64,000 nucleotides of DNA from Spirochaetales bacterium (GCA_050872545.1 JBNMHA010000001.1:4047-68046); one strand, 5' to 3'; positions 361-19,671 are shown, numbered from the stretch's first letter. Notes: generated by a model not told the origin, from the letters alone. A program made the numbers and translations.

Positions 361-407
361 GGCTGTTCCGGAAGTACGAAAAACTTCACTGGAACAGCCT
401 TTTTTTA
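361..407 (+). terminator. Rho-independent terminator after the purQ fragment
   Basis: Hairpin GGCTGTTCC...GGAACAGCC (9-bp stem) followed by a T7 run, directly after the stop at 338. It also lies at the 3' end of the convergent minus-strand operon. Confidence 0.5.
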
Positions 408-410
408 TTT

Positions 411-575
411 CGTTAAAACTTAACACAAAGAGCGATTGCTGCACCGTTCGGCGTTGCCTGTTGTCTGTGGCTTCTGCCACACGAAAGTTCACCTTTGTTC
501 CCGGAAGTCAGCCCAATGTCTACCGAAAATCGGTTCATTTCACCTTTCAGCCAAGCCCTTGCACCTAATGCCCCG
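411..575 (-). repeat. Conserved 3'-end module, copy 1 of 4 (~165 nt, ~95% nucleotide identity), covering the last ~47 codons, the stop and the intergenic linker
   Basis: Direct comparison with the segments at 1327-1490, 2109-2275 and 3023-3190. Confidence 0.85.
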
Positions 576-1318
576 AACATGAACGATAAGCCAGTACTGC
601 TTACCAAACCGCCAAAAATAGAAAGTGCTCCGCCTAAAACTCGAATAGAATAAGTTGATGAATCTGATTTCCTTAGATTTTCTTCTATCACGCCTAAATG
701 TGTACCTGTAAATAATATTATTCCGCTTATAAACATAGGAACAAAACATCCTCCAACTACACCAAAAGAAATTGCTATTCTCTTGTATAATTTCAGGTGT
801 TTGTTTGAAAGATTGATAAAACGTTCTTTATCTTTAATTTCTCCATTTTGACAAACATCATCTCCTATAATGCTGAATATAATTCCACTCACCAAAAATA
901 CTTGAGAAATAAAAACGGGAAATAGTCCAAAGAAGAAAGTAAAAGGCAGCAAAATTGTACTCATATTCGGGGTTTCAACATCAAAGCATATCTTTTCCCA
1001 CCATTTTGGAATAACGTGATAAGCATATCCTACCGACGCAACTGTATAAGGAACAGACAATGCCAATGAAGTAAATCCTAAAAAACGAGTAGCATGACCT
1101 CTTATTATTTTATATTCTGGAGTTCTTCGCAATGCTCTGCGTTTATTTCGTGCATTACGTCTTTCTTGACGTTCCTGCTTTCTTATTTTTTTATAATCAT
1201 TTTCTATTGAAAAATCTGGTACTGCATTTTCTATTTCCGGCAAATTTTCTGTTTTTTCATTAGCGAAAAAACTTAATGTGCAAAAAAGTAAAACTGTTAT
1301 TAAAATCAATCGCTTCAT
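413..1318 (-). CDS. Polytopic membrane protein, paralog type A (copy 1): signal peptide, Arg/Lys-rich segment, 4-5 TM helices, conserved hydrophilic C-tail
   Basis: ORF of 301 aa. Its N-terminal 40 aa and C-terminal ~50 aa (...AWLKGEMNRFSVDIGLTSGNKGELSCGRSHRQQATPNGAAIALCVKF) are near-identical to the ORF at 2112..3014, while the core diverges. An 11-nt gap separates it from the upstream gene. Confidence 0.6.
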   Translation of the reverse strand: MKRLILITVLLFCTLSFFANEKTENLPEIENAVPDFSIENDYKKIRKQERQERRNARNKRRALRRTPEYKIIRGHATRFLGFTSLALSVPYTVASVGYAYHVIPKWWEKICFDVETPNMSTILLPFTFFFGLFPVFISQVFLVSGIIFSIIGDDVCQNGEIKDKERFINLSNKHLKLYKRIAISFGVVGGCFVPMFISGIILFTGTHLGVIEENLRKSDSSTYSIRVLGGALSIFGGLVSSTGLSFMFGALGARAWLKGEMNRFSVDIGLTSGNKGELSCGRSHRQQATPNGAAIALCVKF

Positions 1319-1326
1319 TTCTGTCT

Positions 1327-1490
1327 CCGTTAGAACTTAACGCAAAGAGCAATCGCTGCACCGTTCGGCGTTATTTGTTGTCTGCGGCTTCTGTCACACG
1401 AAAGTTCGCCTTTATTCCCGGAAGTCAACCCAATGTCTACTGAAAGTCGGTTCGTTTGCCCTTTCAGCCAAGCAGACATTGCGAGACTGG
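1327..1490 (-). repeat. Conserved 3'-end module, copy 2 of 4
   Basis: Nucleotide identity to the modules at 411-575, 2109-2275 and 3023-3190. Confidence 0.85.
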
Positions 1491-2100
1491 TTATCATAAT
1501 CGGAAGAGTAAACAAAGCTGAACTTCCAAATGAAATTAAAATAATTCCAAGAGTAAGCAAATCTTTGTTGTTTTCGTTAAAACAGGCTGCTCCAATTATA
1601 CCGCCGCCAGCTCCTGCAATTGTCAGCCCAACGCCTGTAACAATACCGAATACTAATGCTAATGTTTGCCAAAGTTTTATTCTTGATTTGTAATATTCTG
1701 CCAATTTTTCACTTGAACAATACTGCTGTCTTTTCTGATACAGTTTAACTCCTGTCGACAACATAATTATTCCCGGTATCATAAATCCTAAAGGAATAAC
1801 GCTGAAAAATACCGCATTAAAAAGCCCTAAAGGGAAAACTGTTAATGCAAAATTTATTGATAACGGAACACAGATTAATGACAAAATTCCCGAATGTGCC
1901 AAAAATATGCTTCCTATTGCTGTTCGCCGGATAGCTTTATATGTTTTCACTTCCATTGATTTTTCATCCAAGCGAAATTCCGGCTGTGTTTGCGTATCCT
2001 TTTCTATACAAAACGATGTTTTATCTTCTATTTCATTTGAATATATTTGAATAACCGAAAATATACTTATAAATATTGCTGCAACTAATAACTTGCTCAT
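1330..2100 (-). CDS. Polytopic membrane protein, paralog type B (copy 1)
   Basis: ORF of 256 aa. Its N-terminal ~45 aa (MSKLLVAAIFISIFSVIQIYSNEIEDKTSFCIEKDTQT...) and C-terminal ~60 aa are shared with the ORF at 3026..3799. The hydrophobic core is variable. Confidence 0.6.
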   Translation of the reverse strand: MSKLLVAAIFISIFSVIQIYSNEIEDKTSFCIEKDTQTQPEFRLDEKSMEVKTYKAIRRTAIGSIFLAHSGILSLICVPLSINFALTVFPLGLFNAVFFSVIPLGFMIPGIIMLSTGVKLYQKRQQYCSSEKLAEYYKSRIKLWQTLALVFGIVTGVGLTIAGAGGGIIGAACFNENNKDLLTLGIILISFGSSALFTLPIMITSLAMSAWLKGQTNRLSVDIGLTSGNKGELSCDRSRRQQITPNGAAIALCVKF

Positions 2101-2108
2101 TTCTGCCT

Positions 2109-2275
2109 CCGTTAAAACTTAACACAAAGAGCGATCGCTGCACCGTTCGGCGTTGCATGTTGTCTGCGGCTTCTGTCACACGAAAGTTCGCCTTTGTTCC
2201 CGTAAATCAGCCCAATGTCTACCGAAAGTCGGTTCATTTCACCTTTCAGCCAAGCCCTCGCACCTAATGCCCCGA
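2109..2275 (-). repeat. Conserved 3'-end module, copy 3 of 4
   Basis: Nucleotide identity to the other three copies. Confidence 0.85.
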
Positions 2276-3014
2276 ACATGAATGAGAATCCAAGTCCGGA
2301 AAATATTGTTCCTAAAGTTGTAAGAATTACACCGGATTGTAAGTTAAGAGTGTCTTGATATACTGTTCCACATTTTATTCCGCAAAGTATTCCAATTCCA
2401 CCAGCAAACATTGGGATAAATAATGTTCCAAATACAGCACCAACAATCGTAATGCTGCGAAATATTTTAGATAATTTGATTGAGACTATTTTAAATTGGG
2501 TTTCATCGATTTTTTCTATATTACGTTTTTTATAATATTTGCCGTATGCCAAACTTAAACCTATTCCCACACCGACAGAAGCAATTCCTAACAAAATAGG
2601 AACACTCAAGAAGATAAAAAACAAGGAATATGCAATCCCCCAACTCCAATCGTATGATGATGTGACATCAAATCCGGAATCAAAAAAAAATGCAGCAGCA
2701 GAAGCAAGCGGAATCATTACATGATAGATATAACCTGCTGTCAAAATAGTTGCCGGAACAGAAAAAACTGATGTTGTGACTGCACCAAAAACAATTAAAG
2801 AACTTTTTAACATTTTGTATTCTGCTGTTCTTTTTAAAGCTCTTTTTTCTCGTCGTCTCTCCAATTTTTCTTGCCGCCAAATTTCTCGCTGTTCATTTTC
2901 TATTGAAAAATCTGGTACTGCATTTTCTATTTCCGGCAACGCTTCAGCTTTTTCATTAGCGAAAAAACTTAGTGTGCAAAAAAGTAAAATTGTTATTAAA
3001 ATTAATCGTTTCAT
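2112..3014 (-). CDS. Polytopic membrane protein, paralog type A (copy 2)
   Basis: ORF of 300 aa, mosaic relative to 413..1318 (conserved termini, divergent core). Confidence 0.6.
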   Translation of the reverse strand: MKRLILITILLFCTLSFFANEKAEALPEIENAVPDFSIENEQREIWRQEKLERRREKRALKRTAEYKMLKSSLIVFGAVTTSVFSVPATILTAGYIYHVMIPLASAAAFFFDSGFDVTSSYDWSWGIAYSLFFIFLSVPILLGIASVGVGIGLSLAYGKYYKKRNIEKIDETQFKIVSIKLSKIFRSITIVGAVFGTLFIPMFAGGIGILCGIKCGTVYQDTLNLQSGVILTTLGTIFSGLGFSFMFGALGARAWLKGEMNRLSVDIGLIYGNKGELSCDRSRRQHATPNGAAIALCVKF

Positions 3015-3022
3015 TTCTGCCT

Positions 3023-3190
3023 CCGTTAAAACTTAACGCAAAGAGCGATTGCTGCACCGTTCGGCGTTGCCTGTTGTCTGTGGCTTCTGTCACACGAAAG
3101 TTCGCCTTTATTCCCAGAAGTCAGCCCAATGTCTACAAAAAACCGATTCATTTCACCTTTCAGCCAAGCAGACATTGCGAGACTGGTTAT
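3023..3190 (-). repeat. Conserved 3'-end module, copy 4 of 4
   Basis: Nucleotide identity to the other three copies. Confidence 0.85.
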
Positions 3191-3799
3191 CATAATCGGA
3201 AGAGTTGAAAACACACTTCCACTTCCCACGAATGTAAAAATATTACCTAAGATTCCGTAAGTCGGATTGCTCACTGAAGCAAATAAACTTACGCAAATTA
3301 ATCCTATTCCAGCCAATGCTATCCCTCCACTGCATGAACAAATAATTCCAGATACAATTGCTGATGTCTTTAGTTTCATCAATTTTTTTGTAATAAACGG
3401 CTGCAATTTTTCTAAATGCATATACGAATGCTTGTATTTTTTTATCCCAGAAGACAATAAAACACTGCCCGAGATTAATGTTCCTAATAACCCACCCACA
3501 GATAAACATGTTAATGTTGCACTTAAAACAATTGAACTTATTGAACGCAAATCTGTTAGTAAAAAAACATCAGTCACCGCACAAACATTGAATATTGTTG
3601 TTGCGCTACCTATTAGGATTGCTCCGGCATGAATTTTATTTATTTGGTTTACTAAAATTTTTTCATCCAAGCGAAATTCCGGATGAGTTTGTGTATCCTT
3701 TTCTATACAAAACGATGTTTTATCTTCTATTTCATTTGAATATATTTGAATAACCGAAAATATACTTATAAATATTGCTGCAACTAATAACTTGCTCAT
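3026..3799 (-). CDS. Polytopic membrane protein, paralog type B (copy 2)
   Basis: ORF of 257 aa, mosaic relative to 1330..2100. Confidence 0.6.
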   Translation of the reverse strand: MSKLLVAAIFISIFSVIQIYSNEIEDKTSFCIEKDTQTHPEFRLDEKILVNQINKIHAGAILIGSATTIFNVCAVTDVFLLTDLRSISSIVLSATLTCLSVGGLLGTLISGSVLLSSGIKKYKHSYMHLEKLQPFITKKLMKLKTSAIVSGIICSCSGGIALAGIGLICVSLFASVSNPTYGILGNIFTFVGSGSVFSTLPIMITSLAMSAWLKGEMNRFFVDIGLTSGNKGELSCDRSHRQQATPNGAAIALCVKF

Positions 3800-3811: not shown

Positions 3812-6800
3812 TTAATCAAAAAGATTAATTAATTTATCATTCATTAAATTAGAATCTATTTCATTCATAGCATCATTAAATACACAATAAATTCTAGTAG
3901 TTTGATGATCATAAAAACCATCCCATCCAAATGTAAAAGAATTTTCCAAAGGAATTGCTTTTTCGATTTGATACCAGTATTTCTCAATATTTTTGTCGTA
4001 ATAACTACGCCCTGCACCAGAAATAAATCCATCAATACTAATATTATTTGAGAAATCAACAAAGTGAGCTTCATCTCTGTAAAGAATATGGATTTCTTGA
4101 GAAATCTTACATGCTGCTAATCGAATTAACTGAACAGTTAAATATGTAAAATCTAAAAAAGTTACAGCTAGCGCAATCTGAAGTGCAATTTCCCAAGAAT
4201 AATTATAAGGCGGAATAATTCCATCATCAAAAGCCGGCGGAACAATTTCATCATCATTACTATAAAAATTGTACATTTTTACCTTTTTGTCGCCGCTGAG
4301 TGAATTAAATGTCTTATTCGGAAACTTAAAGCAATCTCTGTTAGATTTTTCGTTGTCTCCTATATCTGCTGTACTTGTTCCTACGCCGTTCAGTCCTACT
4401 ACAAATGGGATTTCACTCGCAAACTTTTCCATTTTGTCAGTTTGCAGATTGTGCATTGTGATGTTATTCACCGTTACACCGTGCGAATGCCCTATAAGTA
4501 TTATTTGAGACGCTCGGCAGTAAAAAAGGTTTGCCGCTACTCTGTCGTATATAAATTTTTCCAGTGCTTCGGCTGCCGCGTCACGGTATTCATAATTGTT
4601 TTCGCCCGACCAGTTGAAGTAATACGCTTTGTCATTTTGCGAATAATCCAAATTCAAAGCTTTTGCTACAGACGGCTGTTTAAAAAATTTTGCGGTATTT
4701 CCTTCACCGTTTTCGCAAAACATGTAATAGTTTCCATGCTGTTTAGCTTCAGTTACCCACTTATAAAAAAGCGTTCCATGTGTAAATATTACTATTCTGC
4801 TTGTAGGTACATCGTCAAGTTCCGATAAAAACTCCCGGCTGTCATCAGCTTCTTCCGTTACTTCAAACTTTACCACACTGTAATCTTTATACAATTTGTA
4901 CGTATAACTTGTAGTTACGCCTTGGCTGTCTTTTTGTGAACTGACATAAAGAGCCCAATATCCTTCGGTAGCTTTCCTTAAATCTTCCCTAAATGTGTCA
5001 TGCTCATAACCGCTTCCGTTGCTGGATGATGTATGTGATTTCATGTGAATGGAAACAGTTTTCACATATCTAAAATATGACGTACACAATTCATTGCCAT
5101 TTTTATCTAAAAGCGGAACACCTTTTACAAACTTTTTTGTAGGAATATACGGCTGTCCGTTTTTTTGCAGGTAGTATTCGGTATCGCCAATGCGAAAAAG
5201 ATTATTTGAATGAGGTTCACCGCTTTGGTAACAGGCATTCCGCACTGCATTTTCAGTCGCTGCAATTCTGAATTCGCCGACATTGTTTGAAAAAATTGCC
5301 GGAGTCTGCGGTACTTCTATTCTTACTTCCGGTTCATCCGCATCAATAAAATACATATCATTTTCAGGTTCTTTCTGTTCCACTCCGGCAAAGTCCGCCA
5401 GTTTCGCCACAATCTGCATTGCGGTTTCATTTGCCTTTATGTAATCATTATCCCGAAATGTTTTTTGCAGTTTTTTTGTGTCATCAAGCAAATCAATTTG
5501 TTTCCTTGTATCTTCATCCGCCGCCAAACTGACAAGGCGCGAAGTCAATTCCCACAACGTTATGCCCTCTGCACGCCGTACACTGCTTACGTTAGTTGAA
5601 ACTCCTATTAAATCAAAAGTTACTTCCTCATCACGGTCTGCATTTACAAGATACGGAAAACTCAATGTCATATTCGCACCGGCAGCCAATTCTACAGATG
5701 TAGATTTTAAATCCATTTGGACAAACGACGGAATATTTTCAAAACGCAGACATATCACATCAGTTTGCTTTGCATTATTTGTAACTGTTACTTTTATCTG
5801 GCTTTTTACACCTTTAGTGTAATAACCGACATTTGATTGAATCGAAAAATCGGCATCTACAACATTCAGTTTAATGACATGTTCACGTTTTACTTTAGGA
5901 TTGTTTGCCGAACTGCAAATTATCTTTACTTCAGTACTTTTCTTTTCAGTAAGCTTCACTGCAACTTCTATTGTTTCATGAGATTTTCCGTTTAATGCAG
6001 CTGTATTTTTAGATAACTTAACTTGGGCAAAATCAGAATCCGCACTGATAAAATATGAATCCTTAATATCCGTATTATTATGAATTACGATCGATGTTAA
6101 AATTTCTGCATTCAACGGCAATGACAATGAAGAATTTCCAGATATTGTGAAATCCGCATTGCTTGGATTAAACGTAATAGTAAAACTCTGCTTTTGCGCT
6201 GGATTGTTCACTGATGTCAAAGTAATTACTGCTTCTTTTGATGACGTTTCGTTTAGTTTCGCTTCCAATACAAGACTTTTGCTTTCACCGGATTTCACAG
6301 CAAATAAATTTGTCTCGGCTGATATTTCAAGACCAACGGATGGTTCTGTTTCTACTTTGTACGTATCATCAACATCACCATTATTTGTTATATTCAGTGT
6401 CTGCCGAGTACTTTCATTCACTGCTACAAACAACGCATTATTTCCAGATATTGTGAAATCCACGTTACTTGGATTAAACGTAATAATGAAACTTTGTTTC
6501 TGTGCCGGATTGTTCACTGATGTCAAAGTAATTACTGCTTCTTTTGATGATGTTTCGTTTAGTTTCGCTTCCAGCGCAAGACTTTTGCTTTCACCGGATT
6601 TCACGGCAAATAAATTTGTCTCGGCTAATATTTCAAGACCAGCGGATGATTCTGTTTCTACTTTGTACGTATCATCAACATCGCCGTTATTTGTTATGTT
6701 CAGTGTCTGCCGAGTACTTTCGTTCACCGCAACAAACAGCGCATTATTTCCAGATATTGTGAAATCCGCATTGCTCGGGTTAAACGTAATGGTAAAACTC

Positions 6801-8392
6801 TGCTTTTGCGCTGGATTGTTTACTGATGTCAAAGTAATTACTGCTTCTTTTGATGATGTTTCGTTTAGTTTCGCTTCCAGTGCAAGGCTTTTGCTTTCAC
6901 CGGATTTCACTGCAAATAAATTTGTCTCGGCTGATATTTCAAGACCGGCGGATGATTCTGTTTCTACTTTGTACGTATCATCAACATCGCCGTTATTTGT
7001 TATATTTAGCGTCTGCCGAGTACTTTCATTCACCGCAACAAACAACGCATTATTTCCAGATATTGAAAAATCCGCATTGCTTGGGTTAAACGTAATAATG
7101 AAACTCTGCTTTTGTGCCGGATTGTTTACAGATGTCAAAGTAATTACTGCTTCTTTTGATGATGTTTCGTTTAGTTTCGCTTCCAGTGCAAGACTTTTGC
7201 TTTCACCGGATTTCACTGCAAATAAATTTGTCTCGGCTAATATTTCAAGACCAACGGATGGTTCTGTTTCTACTTTGTACGTATCATCAACATCGCCGTT
7301 ATTTGTTATATTTAGCGTCTGCCGAGTGCTTTCATTCACCGCAACAAACAGCACATTATTTCCAGATATTGTGAAATCCACGTTACTTGGATTAAACGTA
7401 ATGGTAAAACTCTGCTTTTGCGCCGGATTGTTCACTGATGTCAAAGTAATTACTGCTTCTTTTGATGACGTTTCGTTTAGTTTCGCTTCCAGTGCAAGGC
7501 TTTTGCTTTCACCGGATTTCACGGCAAATAAATTTGTCTCGGCTGATATTTCAAGACCGACGGATGATTCTGTTTCAACTTTGTATGTATCATCAACATC
7601 GCCATTATTTGTTATGTTCAGTGTCTGCTGAGTACTTTCATTCACTGCTACAAACAGCGCATTATTTCCAGATATTGTGAAATCCGCGTTACTTGGATTA
7701 AACGTAATGGTAAAACTACAGTTTTCATTTGAATCATTTTCCGAAACTGCGGTAATATCGACTTTGCCGATTCTTGATTCCGGCAGCATAACGCTGTAAT
7801 CTACAGTTTCATACTCTCCGGAAGAGATTTTAACTTCAGTTTTTGTCAACGTTAAGCTAACATTTTCACATACCGCCGACAGCGCATATTTATCCGAAAA
7901 TTTTCCGGTATTTCTTACAATGAAATTTCCGGTCAATTGTTTATTCACCGGCAAATACAAAGATGAATCTCCGATTATCTCAACTTTTGCCGGAGTAGAA
8001 ATATCTACAGTCAACAAAATTTCTTTTTTATTCGGACGAAAAGATTCCCCGCCTACGACAAATATAGCTGCCTTGTAACTTCCTTTTTTCAAAGCTTTTA
8101 CGCAAAATATCGCTTCTTTCTTTTCACGTGCATTTACAGAAATTTTTTCTGCAAACTCCAAGTTGAAGCCTTCAGATTTTTCTGCTGACAAATAAAAATC
8201 CTGCGAATAATCCTCTTGATTTTCTATAAATACAGAAAGCAATTGCTCTGTTTCCAACGGCATTTTTTTAAGCAGCTGATTTTCCGACAGTGCAAATTTG
8301 TACTCTCTGTGAGTTTTCACTTCGTTCCATTGTTCCTGCGTACAGCTGAAAATAAACAGCAGCATTATCGACAACAAACTATAGTATTTCAT
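3812..8392 (-). CDS. Giant surface lipoprotein (1526 aa): lipobox, Ig/CARDB-like region, 5.3 near-identical 102-aa tandem repeats, C-terminal alpha/beta-hydrolase (lipase/esterase-like) domain
   Basis: Signal peptide with lipobox IFSC. The unit FTITFNPSN...AQKQS is repeated. The C-terminal region carries HG (FTHGT) and the nucleophile-elbow GHSHG motif typical of lipase/esterase folds. The gene overlaps its neighbours in the operon. Confidence 0.6.
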   Translation of the reverse strand: MKYYSLLSIMLLFIFSCTQEQWNEVKTHREYKFALSENQLLKKMPLETEQLLSVFIENQEDYSQDFYLSAEKSEGFNLEFAEKISVNAREKKEAIFCVKALKKGSYKAAIFVVGGESFRPNKKEILLTVDISTPAKVEIIGDSSLYLPVNKQLTGNFIVRNTGKFSDKYALSAVCENVSLTLTKTEVKISSGEYETVDYSVMLPESRIGKVDITAVSENDSNENCSFTITFNPSNADFTISGNNALFVAVNESTQQTLNITNNGDVDDTYKVETESSVGLEISAETNLFAVKSGESKSLALEAKLNETSSKEAVITLTSVNNPAQKQSFTITFNPSNVDFTISGNNVLFVAVNESTRQTLNITNNGDVDDTYKVETEPSVGLEILAETNLFAVKSGESKSLALEAKLNETSSKEAVITLTSVNNPAQKQSFIITFNPSNADFSISGNNALFVAVNESTRQTLNITNNGDVDDTYKVETESSAGLEISAETNLFAVKSGESKSLALEAKLNETSSKEAVITLTSVNNPAQKQSFTITFNPSNADFTISGNNALFVAVNESTRQTLNITNNGDVDDTYKVETESSAGLEILAETNLFAVKSGESKSLALEAKLNETSSKEAVITLTSVNNPAQKQSFIITFNPSNVDFTISGNNALFVAVNESTRQTLNITNNGDVDDTYKVETEPSVGLEISAETNLFAVKSGESKSLVLEAKLNETSSKEAVITLTSVNNPAQKQSFTITFNPSNADFTISGNSSLSLPLNAEILTSIVIHNNTDIKDSYFISADSDFAQVKLSKNTAALNGKSHETIEVAVKLTEKKSTEVKIICSSANNPKVKREHVIKLNVVDADFSIQSNVGYYTKGVKSQIKVTVTNNAKQTDVICLRFENIPSFVQMDLKSTSVELAAGANMTLSFPYLVNADRDEEVTFDLIGVSTNVSSVRRAEGITLWELTSRLVSLAADEDTRKQIDLLDDTKKLQKTFRDNDYIKANETAMQIVAKLADFAGVEQKEPENDMYFIDADEPEVRIEVPQTPAIFSNNVGEFRIAATENAVRNACYQSGEPHSNNLFRIGDTEYYLQKNGQPYIPTKKFVKGVPLLDKNGNELCTSYFRYVKTVSIHMKSHTSSSNGSGYEHDTFREDLRKATEGYWALYVSSQKDSQGVTTSYTYKLYKDYSVVKFEVTEEADDSREFLSELDDVPTSRIVIFTHGTLFYKWVTEAKQHGNYYMFCENGEGNTAKFFKQPSVAKALNLDYSQNDKAYYFNWSGENNYEYRDAAAEALEKFIYDRVAANLFYCRASQIILIGHSHGVTVNNITMHNLQTDKMEKFASEIPFVVGLNGVGTSTADIGDNEKSNRDCFKFPNKTFNSLSGDKKVKMYNFYSNDDEIVPPAFDDGIIPPYNYSWEIALQIALAVTFLDFTYLTVQLIRLAACKISQEIHILYRDEAHFVDFSNNISIDGFISGAGRSYYDKNIEKYWYQIEKAIPLENSFTFGWDGFYDHQTTRIYCVFNDAMNEIDSNLMNDKLINLFD
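6100..7717 (-). repeat. In-frame tandem repeat array inside the giant lipoprotein gene: 306-bp unit, about 5.3 copies, more than 95% identical
   Basis: Plus-strand shadow ORFs in 6147..7680 recur with a 306-nt period. The protein repeat 'ITFNPSN(A/V)DF(T/S)ISGNN' occurs six times. Confidence 0.9.
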
Positions 8393-8939
8393 TTTCCCTC
8401 CTTATTGTGAAATCAACAACCTTACACTTAATAAAAGGACGATAACTTATTGAACTGACATAACCATTGCCGAAATATGTACTGGCAGATAAACATTGCT
8501 GCACAACAAACGGATAAACAGATAAGGCTTTGTATATTCTGTTATAAAATGAACTTTCCGATTCAGTCACCGGTTCAAATTTTCTGCTAAATGTTATCAA
8601 TTGATTTTCCCGATAGAATATTTCAATTCCGTTGTCTTCACCGTAAACCATACACGGAAGCTTCTTAGGTGTTCTGTTCAATCGATACAAACTGCCGCTT
8701 TCAGAAATAAAAATAAGTTCTTGTTTTGAAAGTCCGTTTACATCGTAAATGTCATTAGCCTGATTTACTAACTTTACAGATGTCAAAGTTTCTTCATCGA
8801 CTTCACTTTCAATTTTTGCCGTATTGTCCACTTGTACTGTAACATTGTCTTCTTCCTGCAAAGTTTTATGGCTTTTCCAAGTACACCCGACATTGATGGC
8901 CACAAAAAGCAGCACAATTATTAACTTAGAAAAAATCAC
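8379..8939 (-). CDS. Hypothetical lipoprotein
   Basis: ORF of 186 aa with signal peptide and Cys (INVGC). Its start and stop overlap the flanking genes, consistent with operon coupling. Confidence 0.5.
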   Translation of the reverse strand: MIFSKLIIVLLFVAINVGCTWKSHKTLQEEDNVTVQVDNTAKIESEVDEETLTSVKLVNQANDIYDVNGLSKQELIFISESGSLYRLNRTPKKLPCMVYGEDNGIEIFYRENQLITFSRKFEPVTESESSFYNRIYKALSVYPFVVQQCLSASTYFGNGYVSSISYRPFIKCKVVDFTIRRENEIL

Positions 8940-10315: not shown

Positions 10316-10669
10316 TTAGTCGGCACGAACAAAAGTGCCCCAACTCCAAAGTGTCAACTTTCCGCCTGACAATGTGTAAGCGTAAGTTTCATCTTTGTCT
10401 TTAAAGTTGATTATACCGCTTTCGGATTTATCAATTTCCCACTCAAAGCTATTTGAAACCGAACCATTTTTGTAAACATAGTCCACTTTCATTTTGTCAT
10501 TAGATGTGAATTCCAGATTATATTTCTCATACACAGAAAATTCTTTGCTATCAAAATCTTCCGGAACCCATTTCCCAATAAGTCCGCATTCCACTCCAGC
10601 AGGAGTACAGCTCGCCAATGCAAAAATAAATGCAACAGTAATAAAACAAATTTCTAATCCTCTTTTCAT
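10316..10669 (-). CDS. Small 'GKW-motif' lipoprotein (117 aa), first gene of operon 1
   Basis: Lipobox LASC followed by the motif TPAGVECGLIGKW. It is paralogous to 11321..11701 and 63449..63814. Confidence 0.6.
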   Translation of the reverse strand: MKRGLEICFITVAFIFALASCTPAGVECGLIGKWVPEDFDSKEFSVYEKYNLEFTSNDKMKVDYVYKNGSVSNSFEWEIDKSESGIINFKDKDETYAYTLSGGKLTLWSWGTFVRAD

Positions 10670-10706
10670 AGTTAATATCCTTGTAATAAAATTTCACGAA
10701 ACTGTA

Positions 10707-10738
10707 AGATTAGCCGGCTATTGCAATCTCGCTGTCAA
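10707..10738 (-). promoter_or_regulatory. Candidate sigma70-like promoter for operon 1
   Basis: On the minus strand: TTGACA (10738-10733), a 20-nt spacer, then TAATCT (10712-10707), about 40 nt upstream of the RBS AAGGAT and the ATG at 10669. The spacer is longer than optimal. Confidence 0.25.
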
Positions 10739-10770
10739 GTTTTATCGTTCATGAAAAGCGATTTTGCAAG

Positions 10771-10815
10771 AAAAAAAACTTCCCGGAGGTCAAGAAAATT
10801 CTCCGGGAAGTTTTT
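10771..10815. terminator. Bidirectional intrinsic terminator (A8, CTTCCCGGAG, 12-nt loop, CTCCGGGAAG, T5)
   Basis: Perfect 10-bp GC-rich inverted repeat flanked by an A-run and a T-run. It separates operon 2 and the repeat element from the operon-1 promoter. Confidence 0.65.
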
Positions 10816-11027
10816 CTTGGTAAATTTTTTGTTAGTTATATTGATTTTGAAATTAATACAAGTATAATTAAAATTTTTTGTTATAAACAAATCAAGACTT
10901 TATACCAATTTAGTATTATTTACAAAATGTGTGGCAATTTTCTTTGCAGGGGACAGACCTCAATTCTAACTTGGGATACAAGTAAATTCGGGTGGATATG
11001 AAAGTAAACTAAGGGACCGACCTATAT

Positions 11028-11205
11028 GCTATTTTAGAATTAAAGTCTGTCCCTTGTGTTAATGAGATCTCCGGGTCAAGCCCGAAGATGACATAAAATT
11101 TCACAAATTACTTTGTTATTCCCTAACTTGCGTCCTATTGTCATTGCCCGGTGCGACCGGATAATGACATTAGGCTTGTATGGTGTCAGACCTATATGCT
11201 ATTTC
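11028..11205. repeat. 187-bp structured repeat unit (1.1 copies) with internal inverted repeats
   Basis: Contains GGTCTGTCCC pairing with GGGACAGACC upstream, the hairpin ATCTCCGGG-tcaag-CCCGAAGAT, and CCTATTGTCATT-19nt-AATGACATTAGG. Confidence 0.7.
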
Positions 11206-17309: not shown

Positions 17310-18940
17310 TGTCGTCTCCATATCACAACATTAGTTTTTTTATTGTATATTTTTGTTCGACCATAATTCCACATGTAAAATCCTCCGGTAGATGTCCATT
17401 CCCATTTTCCTTTCCACCATTCCCACCATTTACCAGTCTTTTCCCATCTCCAATACCCAGTCGGAACCCATACACGGAACCAAGCATAACCATACTGGTC
17501 TGATGAAGAATCATAAATATCATCAGGAGTAATAATCCTTCCCACACAACCTCGAATAATTGCATGAGCAGGAAACAAAAGTAGAGCATCTAACCATACA
17601 AAAGATTGAAGAGCCGGATATTGATTTTTTACATCGGAATTCAAATCTATTCCTATACTTTTATATCCTGCATAAGGCATATAACTACAGTAAATATTTT
17701 TGGTTAAATCATATTTAAAATTATCATCATCTTCTTTGTCATTATATTTATTTACTGTATATGCTACAGCCCTTTCCATTTCTGTTTCAGAAGTACGTAT
17801 AGGTTCCAAAATTGCAATTCTTTCTCCATTAGTAAAATTTTTCAACGGTTCAAATGACGGATACCCTAAATGTTCAGGCATTCTGTCTCCCTGCAAATCA
17901 CCTTTTGATGTTTTAGGATACGCCGAGAAAACAAAACTTGTAGAATTCGTGGCATTTATCTTACCGTCTGCCATTTTCTTACCTCTTAAATCAATCAATC
18001 CAGCATGGTCGTATGTTCCATATATGCAGCCTTTACTTTTTAGTTTAGAAACCCTGCAAATAATTTGCCCTGTTTTCAATTTACCGTCTTTTATTTCTTC
18101 ATCCGTTATCAAGTTATTGCTATAATAACTGCCGCTGGAGCTGCTGCTTCGAGTTGCCATTGAATTTAGTTTTTTGTGATAGTTTTGAATCTTTTTAATG
18201 TCTATATTTTTATCCAATAAATCAGAGATTTCCATAACTTCATCTTGGTAATTCAAAAGTGCTAAAAAATGAACAAATGACGCTGCATTAACTTTCACTT
18301 CATTGTTTGCCAAAGTTGCTCTACTGTTTCTCGATTTTCTGTATGATAAATATTTTTTTATATTTAATTTTGTACTTCTGGAATTTGAATCATTATATAA
18401 TTCCATCATTGATAAATCTGCTTTAGCATCAACACTCTCATTAGCTGTTAAAATCAACTCTTCTTCAAAGAATTTTTTTTCAATCTCTTTCAACATCTCA
18501 CCTTCGGCAATTTTTGCCTGAATATAATCAGATGTTAAATCATCCTGATTTTTCAATTCCAGTGTTGTTAAATAGTGATATTCCACTTTTACATCATCAT
18601 TTGCACACGCTTCCTCAAACCCTATTTTTAATTCATCAGGCATACTCATATAGAAATCCAATAACTCTTCTTCTGCCTGAACTGTAACAAAATCTGAAGT
18701 TTCGTCTTCTTGTATTCCCCTACTTCTCCTACTTTGCGCAGACTTTATTTTTGTTAATAAATCATTTTCTAAAACTCGTTTATAATCTCTAGTTACGACT
18801 TCATTTTCTGAAATAATTTCTCTAACATCATTTTTTTCCGACACATTTTCTTTCTTCTCCGTGTTTGCCGCATCACAACCTGCGAATAATACAACTGCCG
18901 CCGATAAAACAGACAGACATAAAGCTTTACATCTTTTCAT
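17306..18940 (-). CDS. Lipoprotein (544 aa) with a possible papain-fold (NlpC/P60-like) region and a tryptophan-rich C-terminal tail, first gene of operon 2
   Basis: Lipobox FAGC. Candidate catalytic residues lie in the order Cys (YCSYM) then His (FPAHAI). The last ~45 aa contain 12 Trp (WFRVWVPTGYWRWEKTGKWWEWWKGKWEW...). The enzymatic assignment is speculative. Confidence 0.4.
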   Translation of the reverse strand: MKRCKALCLSVLSAAVVLFAGCDAANTEKKENVSEKNDVREIISENEVVTRDYKRVLENDLLTKIKSAQSRRSRGIQEDETSDFVTVQAEEELLDFYMSMPDELKIGFEEACANDDVKVEYHYLTTLELKNQDDLTSDYIQAKIAEGEMLKEIEKKFFEEELILTANESVDAKADLSMMELYNDSNSRSTKLNIKKYLSYRKSRNSRATLANNEVKVNAASFVHFLALLNYQDEVMEISDLLDKNIDIKKIQNYHKKLNSMATRSSSSSGSYYSNNLITDEEIKDGKLKTGQIICRVSKLKSKGCIYGTYDHAGLIDLRGKKMADGKINATNSTSFVFSAYPKTSKGDLQGDRMPEHLGYPSFEPLKNFTNGERIAILEPIRTSETEMERAVAYTVNKYNDKEDDDNFKYDLTKNIYCSYMPYAGYKSIGIDLNSDVKNQYPALQSFVWLDALLLFPAHAIIRGCVGRIITPDDIYDSSSDQYGYAWFRVWVPTGYWRWEKTGKWWEWWKGKWEWTSTGGFYMWNYGRTKIYNKKTNVVIWRRQ

Positions 18941-18977
18941 AATTAATATCCTTGTAATAAGATTTCACGAAATTGTA

Positions 18978-19009
18978 AGATTAGCCAGCTATTGCAATCT
19001 TATTGTCAA
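18978..19009 (-). promoter_or_regulatory. Candidate sigma70-like promoter for operon 2 (copy of the 10707-10738 element)
   Basis: TTGACA (19009-19004), 20-nt spacer, TAATCT (18983-18978), inside the duplicated module. Confidence 0.25.
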
Positions 19010-19041
19010 GTTTTATCGTTCATGAAAAGCGATTTTGCAAG

Positions 19042-19086
19042 AAAAAAAACTTCCCGGAGGTCAAGAAAATTCTCCGGGAAGTTTTT
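19042..19086. terminator. Bidirectional intrinsic terminator (copy of 10771-10815)
   Basis: A8, CTTCCCGGAG, loop, CTCCGGGAAG, T5. It would terminate the mrp-plus-repeat transcript. Confidence 0.65.
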
Positions 19087-19288
19087 CTTGGTAAATTTTT
19101 TGTTAGTTCTATTGATTTTGAAATTAGTATAATTATAATAAAAAGTTTTTAATTATCAAATAATTAAGATTTTATGCCTATTTAGTATTATTTACAAAAT
19201 GTGTAACAATTTTTTTGCAGGGGACAGACCTCAATTCTATTTTAAGATACAAGCAAATTCGGGTGAATATAAAATATACTAAGGGACA

Positions 19289-19671
19289 GATTAGTATCCC
19301 ATCTTGGGATTAAGGTCTGTCCCTTGTGTTAATGAGATCTCCGGGGCAAGCCCGAAGATGACACGGATTTTCACAAATCACTTTGTTATTCCCGAACTTG
19401 CTTCCTATTGTCATTGCCCGGCGTGATCAGATAATGACAATAGACTTGTATGGTGTCAGACCTATATGCTATTTCGGAATTAAGGTCTACCCCCTTGTGC
19501 TAATGAGATCTCCGGGTCTAGCACGAAGATGACGCGAAATTTCACAAATCATCTTGTTATTCCCGAACTTGCTTCCTATTGTCATTACCCGACGTAACCG
19601 GACAATGACAATAGACTTGCATAGTGTCAGATCTATATTCTATTCCGGAATCATGGTCTGTCCCTTATAAT
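19289..19671. repeat. Tandem array of the 187-bp structured repeat (units 19289-19475 and 19476-19660, plus a partial unit)
   Basis: Units are about 88% identical. Each carries the hairpin ATCT(C/T)CGGG-5nt-CCCGAAGAT and CTATTGTCATT-19nt-AATGACAATAG. Confidence 0.85.

Follow-up and report, generated by a model that had tools for sequence, protein, structure and literature searches.

A tandem array of spirochaetal membrane-protein genes in which conserved ends evolve in concert around old core types

A 64,000-nucleotide (nt) stretch of DNA from a Spirochaetales bacterium (GCA_050872545.1 JBNMHA010000001.1:4047-68046; hereafter, the window) carries near its start four tandem genes, A1, B1, A2 and B2, whose products are polytopic membrane proteins made up of a conserved N-terminal head, a divergent core rich in transmembrane (TM) helices and a conserved C-terminal tail. 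Comparison of this array with related loci, all of them from genomes labelled as Spirochaetales or Spirochaetota metagenome-assembled genomes (MAGs), reveals that the cores belong to old, discrete paralog types and that the heads and tails of all copies in a genome evolve in concert. We also consider a possible immunity-like role of the proteins towards a polymorphic lipoprotein encoded directly upstream; the statement that joins this function to the evolutionary mechanism has, in our judgement, just short of an even chance of being correct.

Four genes with common ends and different cores

The four open reading frames (ORFs), given with the number of amino acids (aa) that they encode, and the blocks that they share are as follows; SD stands for Shine-Dalgarno.

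413..1318, minus strand: A1, 301 aa, terminal gene of the operon, core type c3 (alpha subtype), head type h1
1330..2100, minus strand: B1, 256 aa, core type c1, head type h2
2112..3014, minus strand: A2, 300 aa, core type c2a, head type h1
3026..3799, minus strand: B2, 257 aa, chimera of a c1-type head (h2) and a c5 core
413..553, minus strand: tail module of A1, 46 codons and a stop, WLKG...SVDIGLTSGNKGELSC...PNGAAIALCVKF
1330..1470, minus strand: tail module of B1
2112..2252, minus strand: tail module of A2
3026..3166, minus strand: tail module of B2
1172..1471, minus strand: junction block of B1 tail, 11-nt SD spacer and A1 head, repeat family D3
1954..2253, minus strand: junction block of A2 tail, spacer and B1 head, repeat families D3 and D14
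2868..3167, minus strand: junction block of B2 tail, spacer and A2 head, repeat family D3

Successive genes are separated by 11 nt, with GGAG in each spacer. At the DNA level, A1 and A2 are near-identical over nt 1-122 and again over their final ~175 nt, and B1 and B2 show three differences in nt 1-141 and are near-identical over their final ~180 nt, the core DNA of either pair being near-random in alignment. Measured in windows of 15 codons, the ends are 80-100% identical in amino acids, 82-100% in nucleotides and 73-100% at third codon positions; the corresponding figures for the cores are 7-53% in amino acids and ~20-50% at third codon positions. Divided into fixed parts (a head of 40 residues, the core and a tail of 47), A1 and A2 are 92, 34 and 87% identical and B1 and B2 98, 38 and 87% identical, and A-versus-B pairs have the tail alone in common (87%). 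The cores of the four proteins are ~30% identical in amino acids. The tail DNA is present in exactly four copies in the window (repeat family D4), and the tail-spacer-head junctions make up a repeat family of 300 nt (D3) in which blocks 1172-1471 and 2868-3167 are 87% identical. These block repeats far exceed chance, and the junction block at 1172-1471 is a recombination substrate. The original prediction, made from this DNA alone, had described four ORFs with near-identical heads and a common 47-aa tail in an A-B-A-B succession of paralogs; coordinates and block structure were borne out by the alignments, and identity plotted along A1/A2 and B1/B2 drops in blocks rather than uniformly. The A-B-A-B succession holds for the head types but not for the paralogs as such, the four cores (c5, c2a, c1 and c3alpha) belonging to four different types (c3, c1, c2 and c5).

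Cores follow type and ends follow genome

Clustering of the cores of related arrays yielded at least seven types (c1-c7, with subtypes). Cores of the same type are 54-76% identical across lineages; between L009, a closely related locus, and the window the figure is 97-100%, the B1 core having a 100% identical counterpart (L009_8305) in L009 and the A2 core a 98% identical one (L009_11613). A1 as a whole is 97.1% identical in nucleotides to the first array gene of L009. The ratio of nonsynonymous to synonymous divergence (dN/dS) of the cores has a median of 0.15 over 66 orthologous pairs. These comparisons show the cores to be old, discrete paralog types, each under purifying selection.

Heads and tails, on the other hand, go with the genome and not with the core type. 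For 41 of 41 tails the nearest tail belongs to the same lineage, and for 35 of the 41 cores a gene of another lineage is nearer than any paralog of the same locus. Median nucleotide identity between tails is 0.87 within a locus versus 0.65 between lineages, and four lineage-specific tail variants could be distinguished (...PNGAAIALCVKF, ...PSGV(K/A)LA(M/L)SVKF, ...GELSGDKRRNVLEKPNGVALALSVKF and ...CDRKRNTLEKPTGVTLALSVKF), each common to all core types of its lineage. Among orthologs of close strains, synonymous divergence (dS) is four to eight times greater in the ends than in the cores, as illustrated by A2 and L009_11613 (core, 0.042; tail, 0.245; head, 0.316). Because tails and heads follow lineage, cores follow type and the ends outpace the cores in dS, we conclude that the ends evolve in concert through gene conversion, and that neither purifying selection alone nor hypervariability of the cores accounts for the pattern. 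The "hypervariable cores" of the original prediction are thus to be replaced by discrete, ancient types that are nearly invariant in close strains and whose flanking ends diverge faster than they do.

The functional constraint on the tail that is evident over the wider family (see below) might suggest that the ends have simply been conserved by purifying selection since an old duplication, with no recombination involved. We find this scarcely credible, as the synonymous sites of the ends are 87-100% identical while those of the cores are saturated, with 20-40% identity at third codon positions, the tails group by lineage rather than core type, the ends of orthologs exceed the cores in dS, and both a chimeric gene (B2) and rearranged blocks are present.

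We note that a distant organism (L021, positions 4819-8679) has an array of its own, located between dxr and a QRPTase gene, in which four paralogs with divergent cores have one tail in common (...PDIAITHDDKxGYTEGYGVSVGMRVRI) and two of the four share a head. The conserved-end design is repeated there with an unrelated-looking tail.

Cassettes are shuffled between close strains and B2 is a chimera

Close relatives of the window are syntenic, with the array located between the lipoprotein gene and purQ/purL. The succession of cassettes, read as core types, is c5-c2a-c1-c3b in the window, c3b-c1a-c2b-c3a-c5a-c2a-c4a in L009, c2a-c3a-c1a-c2b-c4a in L010 and L011 (two independent samples) and ...c2a-c1-c3alpha-c2b-c3beta-c5... 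in L023. Syntenic loci with flanks that are 96-97% identical hold four, five or seven cassettes, and related loci in general have one to nine array genes, in tandem and in one orientation. A blastn map resolves these arrays into blocks of 95-97% identity that occur in different orders and whose boundaries fall within the junction blocks; c5a-c2a moves as one block of 1571 nt and c2a-tail-c1-c3alpha as one of 1910 nt.

B2 offers a direct view of such an exchange. In a three-way DNA alignment its nt 1-141 match B1 save for three mismatches, and from the shared GATGAAAAA onwards it matches the c5 gene of L009. The junction is:

3659..3667, minus strand: B2 chimera junction, a 9-nt microhomology GATGAAAAA common to c1 and c5 genes

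The blastn block boundaries, at 3667 and 3659, coincide with this junction. B2 and L009_10885 are accordingly 97% identical in the core and 29% identical in the head. Elsewhere, c5 genes encode 234-238 aa and have a head of their own, that of the L009 gene being shorter, and the 257-aa form was seen in this contig only. The near-identity of the B1 and B2 heads is therefore explained by the chimeric origin of B2. Misassembly is an unlikely source of the differences between arrays, since the longest exact run shared among the array genes of the window is 107 nt and several array orders were replicated across samples (L010/L011, L013/L014 and L018/L019).

Head- and tail-coding segments, together with the short SD spacer, form ~300-nt homology blocks across the gene junctions. 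Homologous recombination and gene conversion within these blocks keep the heads and tails of a genome alike, duplicate, delete and rearrange entire core cassettes from one strain to another and, now and then, give rise to chimeras such as B2. Each gene junction lies inside a homology block, and so it is the core cassette that can be exchanged as a unit. That the arrays have evolved by recombination through conserved ends around old cores is, in our view, very probable. The part of the original prediction that invoked segmental gene conversion or cassette exchange via conserved termini is upheld by the incongruence of tails and cores, the B2 chimera and the rearranged blocks; the comparison with relatives that it suggested revealed differences in copy number, order and content between close strains.

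Conserved ends, a variable middle and traces of recombination would also be expected of a variable surface or antigenic-variation system whose conserved ends act as recombination sites for hypervariable cores, and the Tpr, Bab and Vsp-like families have a similar layout. In the bab/sab/hop genes of Helicobacter and the tpr genes of Treponema pallidum, the ends of paralogs are homogenised by gene conversion within a genome and the central regions remain distinct; these, however, are dispersed genes for beta-barrel surface proteins under host immune pressure, whereas the genes studied here form a tandem operon array and encode helical proteins with conserved cores. We regard antigenic variation as very improbable. 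The cores are 97-100% identical between strains, with a dN/dS of 0.15; each copy is an intact ORF that has its own ATG, SD spacer and signal sequence, and there are neither silent donor cassettes nor an expression site; the hydrophobic TM-bundle cores have very short, non-basic loops that leave little surface to vary; and, in the first 12 kb, the listed ORFs include no recombinase or invertible element. The earlier suggestion of variable surface proteins is not supported, all copies being complete, SD-preceded ORFs for helical polytopic proteins in an arrangement devoid of silent cassettes.

The protein family and its tail module

Sixty genes of the family were collected. Each member has a Sec-type signal-like head, a four-TM helical core rich in glycine-zipper motifs and a C-terminal module of ~45 aa, some short or split forms having two TM helices rather than four. 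By hydropathy, the proteins begin with a signal-like N-terminal segment that has a conserved ...A/S/C|NE site; an acidic stretch comes next, succeeded by a very basic one and by four TM helices, of which short forms have two, together with a central loop rich in K and R and a tail that is basic. The C-terminal module consists of the end of TM4 (SLAMSAWLKG) and a pair of short, strand-like segments, the last residues being ...V-K/R-F/I. Glycine-zipper motifs number 173, a 3.5-fold enrichment over the 48.7 +/- 6.7 of shuffled sequences, and are mostly found in TM3. An AlphaFold2 (AF2) model of A1 built on a 23-sequence alignment was of low confidence (pLDDT, the predicted score of the local distance difference test, 57) and consisted of helices throughout, apart from a tail that was disordered. 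Judged by the distribution of charges, the tail, the central loop and the stretch before TM1 all lie on one and the same membrane side. All four proteins of the window present a paradox in this respect: with the signal peptide cleaved, the K/R-rich segments would be periplasmic, contrary to the positive-inside rule.

Sequence and profile searches of Pfam and NCBIfam with the array proteins, and with the ~47-aa tail alone as had been suggested at the outset, returned no match above noise, and searches of PADLOC and PDB with the array proteins were empty; thus no curated family model in Pfam, NCBIfam or PADLOC identifies them as a housekeeping transporter family. Relatives were retrieved as 34 clusters from a word-indexed search of 5.8 billion proteins and as 28 matches from an exhaustive profile search of 1.84 billion representatives. 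Among the species-representative genomes scanned, they were confined to a few gut Spirochaetota MAGs (water-deer cecum, faecal), and a scan of viral contigs did not find the family. A "tail" match in a Desulfobacterales genome (L008, from a scan of GTDB) was rejected as fortuitous: it lies in GC-rich DNA, and no ORF corresponds to it. No description of the protein family came up in a literature search, and both the family and its association with a polymorphic lipoprotein of spirochaetes appear to have been undescribed so far.

Distant members (P0068, P0072-P0078, P0084 and the L021 array) have the same architecture and tails that are shorter yet related. Their tails start with a TM4 end of the form LP..I.SL..AWLKG, followed by a segment [ST]xD[IG][GA][LI] and a loop of 0-20 residues, and close with an alternating hydrophobic segment ending in [VI][KR][FI]-COOH. 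Such conservation over the wider family shows the tail to be a protein module with a function of its own. The Cys of GELSC is not essential to it, GELSGD being found throughout one lineage.

Alternatively, the repeated block could be a nucleic-acid element (a structured RNA, a terminator or an antisense gene) that the ORFs run through by accident. The tails of the window do overlap with antisense ORFs of 63-78 aa, and the GC content at third codon positions (GC3) of the tails, 0.47 as opposed to 0.27, would fit an element of this kind. We attach next to no probability to this explanation, given that the block has no Rfam match and no excess structure (fold z-scores of +0.1 to +1.9), that the antisense frame is interrupted by stops in one copy of the window and in many copies of other lineages, and that the tail is kept as a protein sequence in lineages with different DNA.

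Three further observations concern the family at large. Over the 60 genes, GC3 is 0.47 in tails and 0.27 in both cores and heads, and the heads, which are homogenised as well, do not share the high value of the tails, for which a constraint at the mRNA level, a foreign origin or GC-biased gene conversion are possible causes. At L001 (10868-11787), and also at L002, L013, L015, L016 and L018, a 145-aa gene with the family head, two TM helices and no tail is always followed by an overlapping 161-aa gene with a signal of its own, two TM helices and the family tail; the two look like a split, 2+2-TM version of the four-TM protein. Finally, a tail-less gene of ~294-315 aa (T7) is always located 5' of a c6-type member (T8; head MRKFIILV...), as in L003 (3554), L007 (about 5900-6780) and L013, and in L007 the T7-T8 pair directly follows the lipoprotein gene.

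The operon and the upstream lipoprotein

The array genes end an apparent cluster of eight genes on the same strand, tightly spaced or overlapping, which encode a 117-aa lipocalin-like lipoprotein, a 454-aa TolC/OEP-like protein (found in lineage 1 only), a 186-aa lipoprotein, a 1526-aa lipoprotein, B2, A2, B1 and A1. This layout agrees with the predicted position of the array as the last four genes of an eight-gene operon. A strong terminator lies upstream of the cluster, and a hairpin downstream of A1 is the probable operon end. The features outside the array are:

361..399, minus strand: long hairpin (GGCTGTTCC ... GGAACAGCC), read from the sequence, between A1 and a convergent purQ-like ORF
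3812..8392, minus strand: probable lipoprotein of 1526 aa with a lipobox-type signal, six 102-aa immunoglobulin (Ig)-like repeats and a conserved C-terminal body with GHSHG
3812..4203, minus strand: last ~130 aa of the lipoprotein, polymorphic and in this case of type I, from protein alignment and blastn map
4478..4492, minus strand: GHSHG motif, a nucleophile-elbow-like pentapeptide

An array is located directly 3' of a homolog of the large lipoprotein gene in every locus of this clade with enough flanking sequence (L001, L005, L007 and L009-L019). The C-terminus of the lipoprotein falls into six discrete types across homologs, with a sharp breakpoint in conservation: the window and L010 are 96-97% identical up to about position 4203, after which no DNA match is seen up to the stop codon. 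Past the end of the lipoprotein gene, 96-97% identity between the window and its close relatives resumes in the array and the downstream flank. The variable end is hydrophobic.

Within the conserved body, the Ser of GHSHG is invariant in 17 homologs and the His that precedes it is nearly so. It forms part of a series of motifs (IVIFTHG...LIGHSHG...DxxVPP...HQxTR) in which the candidate catalytic Asp (DxxVPP) and His (HQxTR) are likewise conserved. Alignment of the C-domain to the verified lipases 1EX9 and 1I6W (of Pseudomonas aeruginosa and Bacillus subtilis) with hhalign covered the 9-residue elbow only, at a probability of 35% (reversed control, 11%). The "lipase-like" label of this protein, which is based solely on the motifs around GHSHG, is therefore to be understood as a putative, motif-level assignment only.

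Other observations at or near this gene include six tandem repeats of 306 nt (6109-7717; 89-91% identical) that encode the 102-aa Ig-like domains, homologs that range from about 820 to 1526 aa with an apparently strain-variable number of these repeats, and an optional hydrophobic insertion of 32 aa after GTSTAD in some homologs. In L018 (17241-18908) and L017 (3739-5410), which represent two lineages, the array is followed by the gene of a lipoprotein of ~555 aa that matches no Pfam model and whose C-terminus is rich in Trp (...WKWKQTGKWWEWWKGKWEW...); in L017 this gene is split into two ORFs. In the window, ~550 nt comprising the upstream region and 5' end of the operon (10661-11205) are duplicated 8.27 kb away (18932-19646) at 83-94% identity; the interval between the two copies contains, at about 11.3-17.3 kb, several paralogous lipoprotein genes in tandem with repeat families of their own (D7-D10, D12, D13, D15 and D16).

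Comparison with known systems and possible function

A tandem paralog array that recombines through conserved blocks is a kind of system already known. Recombination has been described for tandem arrays of the immunity genes esaG and tipC, which bear blocks of homology at 5' and 3' (Garrett et al. 2022, PMC9484751). As in the present arrays, strings of non-identical paralogs adjoin a polymorphic effector gene (here, the polymorphic lipoprotein as candidate effector), copy number varies among close strains, and recombination between paralogs accounts for gain, loss and chimeras; tipC genes also have high-similarity blocks at their 5' and 3' ends around a variable middle. The arrays described here differ in belonging to an unrelated protein family of Spirochaetota, diderm bacteria with no type VII secretion system, in encoding four-TM polytopic proteins rather than a cytoplasmic protein (EsaG) or a membrane-bound, extracellular-facing one with a probable lipoprotein signal peptide (TipC), and in having discrete, ancient core types that are far more diverged (~30% identity in amino acids) and for which immunity is inferred. 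A second parallel is provided by the til1 paralogs that adjoin the gene of the lipase toxin TslA in Staphylococcus aureus, which vary in copy number and are shuffled across a conserved block (PMC10730906; see also Tsuru & Kobayashi 2008 on til1/lpl, cited therein). Here too a tandem cluster of highly variable copy number lies beside the gene of a polymorphic (phospho)lipase-type effector, a putative one in the spirochaetes, and is shuffled by recombination over a conserved stretch. Til1 proteins, however, are lipoproteins (TilA being a DUF576 lipoprotein; PMC10730906) with the conserved block in mid-gene, whereas the spirochaetal proteins are polytopic with blocks at both ends, and the lipase activity of TslA is proven, the spirochaetal neighbour having a GHSHG motif only.

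Immunity proteins to channel-forming effectors are "in almost all cases" polytopic membrane proteins (PMC12744356). TsaI (for TspA) and ExiCD (for EsxX) resemble the array proteins in being multi-TM proteins encoded downstream of the effector and sometimes found as orphans in effector-less genomes; they bear no sequence relationship to them, the spirochaetal lipoprotein has no recognisable glycine-zipper toxin domain, and tsaI genes have a single homology block and recombine little (PMC9484751). With regard to the lipoprotein itself, effectors are known that are anchored through a lipobox and combine a conserved N-terminus with a polymorphic C-terminus (Zhang et al. 2012, PMC3482391). Like these polymorphic toxins, it has a signal peptide and lipobox, a conserved N-terminal and repeat region, a C-terminus that is swapped between strains and small genes directly 3' of it; because identity with L010 stops at about 4203, its end conforms to the C-terminal displacement pattern of polymorphic effectors. 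Unlike them, it has no known toxin domain, orphan toxin cassettes or known trafficking domain, and the genes downstream of it are of one family with homogenised ends rather than of diverse Imm families.

The analogy with esaG, tipC and til1 arrays leads us to read the array, tentatively and with less than an even chance, as encoding immunity-like membrane proteins; this option of the original prediction survives as the best functional guess. The reading is suggested by the fact that non-identical tandem paralogs directly follow the gene of a polymorphic secreted or anchored protein, that cassette copy number and content vary by strain, that homology blocks drive recombination as in esaG/tipC and til1, and that polytopic proteins are the usual immunity factors against membrane-acting effectors. 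The array proteins would have as their target the C-terminal region of the upstream Ig-repeat lipoprotein, which is polymorphic and probably membrane-associated. Carrying several core types might cover several C-terminus variants circulating in the population, and the shared head and tail would allow all members to be exported or inserted in the same way and, possibly, to dock alike. The first cassette of the array is consistent for C-terminal types I, II, IV and VI; the minimal locus L017 consists of a type-I lipoprotein gene and a single c5 gene, and the type-I lipoprotein gene of the window is also followed first by c5. The pairing of C-terminal type with first cassette is suggestive but weak.

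A number of findings weigh against this proposal. A one-to-one rule between C-terminal type and first cassette had to be rejected, type III being followed by c3alpha, c2a or T7/T8, and the sample of pairings is small and not independent. No such lipoprotein is found near the distant L021 array or the singleton P0072, and no secretion or delivery apparatus was identified at the loci compared beyond the TolC-like gene of lineage 1. The C-domain of the lipoprotein has no match in Pfam, NCBIfam or PDB, even by profile at E<=10, its AF2 model (mean pLDDT 36.9; predicted template-modelling score 0.21) is unusable, and no glycine zipper or other recognisable membrane-toxin motif is present in its polymorphic end. 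The topology signals of the array proteins conflict, the positive-inside rule making the K/R segments cytoplasmic and a cleaved signal peptide placing them outside, and the protein function of the tail itself, conserved family-wide, is left unexplained by an immunity model. The comparison loci are, moreover, mostly short-read metagenome contigs.

Alternatively, the array proteins may be partners that assist the lipoprotein (as membrane anchors, in assembly or export, or as subunits of a membrane complex), the tail docking onto a shared component with which it co-evolves by lineage. Their strict adjacency to and probable co-transcription with the lipoprotein gene would be consistent with such a role, as would the hydrophobic nature of its variable end and a tail that is both a conserved module of the wider family and lineage-specific, as co-evolution with one partner predicts. 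It would be unexpected of an essential partner, however, to be present in one to nine copies whose order and content change between loci with 96-97% identical flanks; lipoprotein-free arrays and singletons exist, and no partner was identified. We consider this possibility unlikely.

It is also conceivable that the array proteins are themselves membrane-active agents (channel-forming, holin-like or bacteriocin-like) that oligomerise via their glycine zippers and C-terminal hairpin, the lipoprotein being unrelated or regulatory. The 3.5-fold enrichment of glycine-zipper motifs, mainly in TM3, and the clash of the positive-inside signal with an ordinary inner-membrane topology behind a signal peptide point in this direction. 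The alternating hydrophobic strand ending in K/R-F with which the tail closes resembles strand-addition or outer-membrane-protein-type C-termini, a likeness that we mention as a lead only. Glycine zippers are nevertheless common in ordinary TM helices, there are no evident cognate immunity genes, four to nine constitutively co-transcribed membrane toxins per operon would be unusual, and the absence of the family from the viral contigs scanned argues against holins or superinfection exclusion. In our estimation, a membrane-active role is quite improbable.

To return to the immunity-like interpretation, its most far-reaching form would be that of an unrecognised polymorphic effector-immunity system in gut Spirochaetota, in which a surface lipoprotein with a swappable C-terminal module is opposed by an array of four-TM immunity cassettes. 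The constant ends would then correspond to an export head and a beta-hairpin-like C-terminal docking tail, kept identical by gene conversion such that any new or reshuffled core might at once be host-compatible. We put this forward as a speculative and rather doubtful extension.

Implications

The arrays call for caution in annotation and in the assembly of MAGs, as the orthology of array genes is unreadable from their ends and array order is strain-specific. Our searches turned up no interbacterial antagonism system for gut spirochaetes; should the immunity reading prove true, the locus would provide a first handle on interbacterial antagonism in these organisms, with a new effector and a new immunity family. 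Whatever its function, it is a very clean natural case of modular concerted evolution, in which cores have long been conserved and the ends that surround them are continually overwritten.

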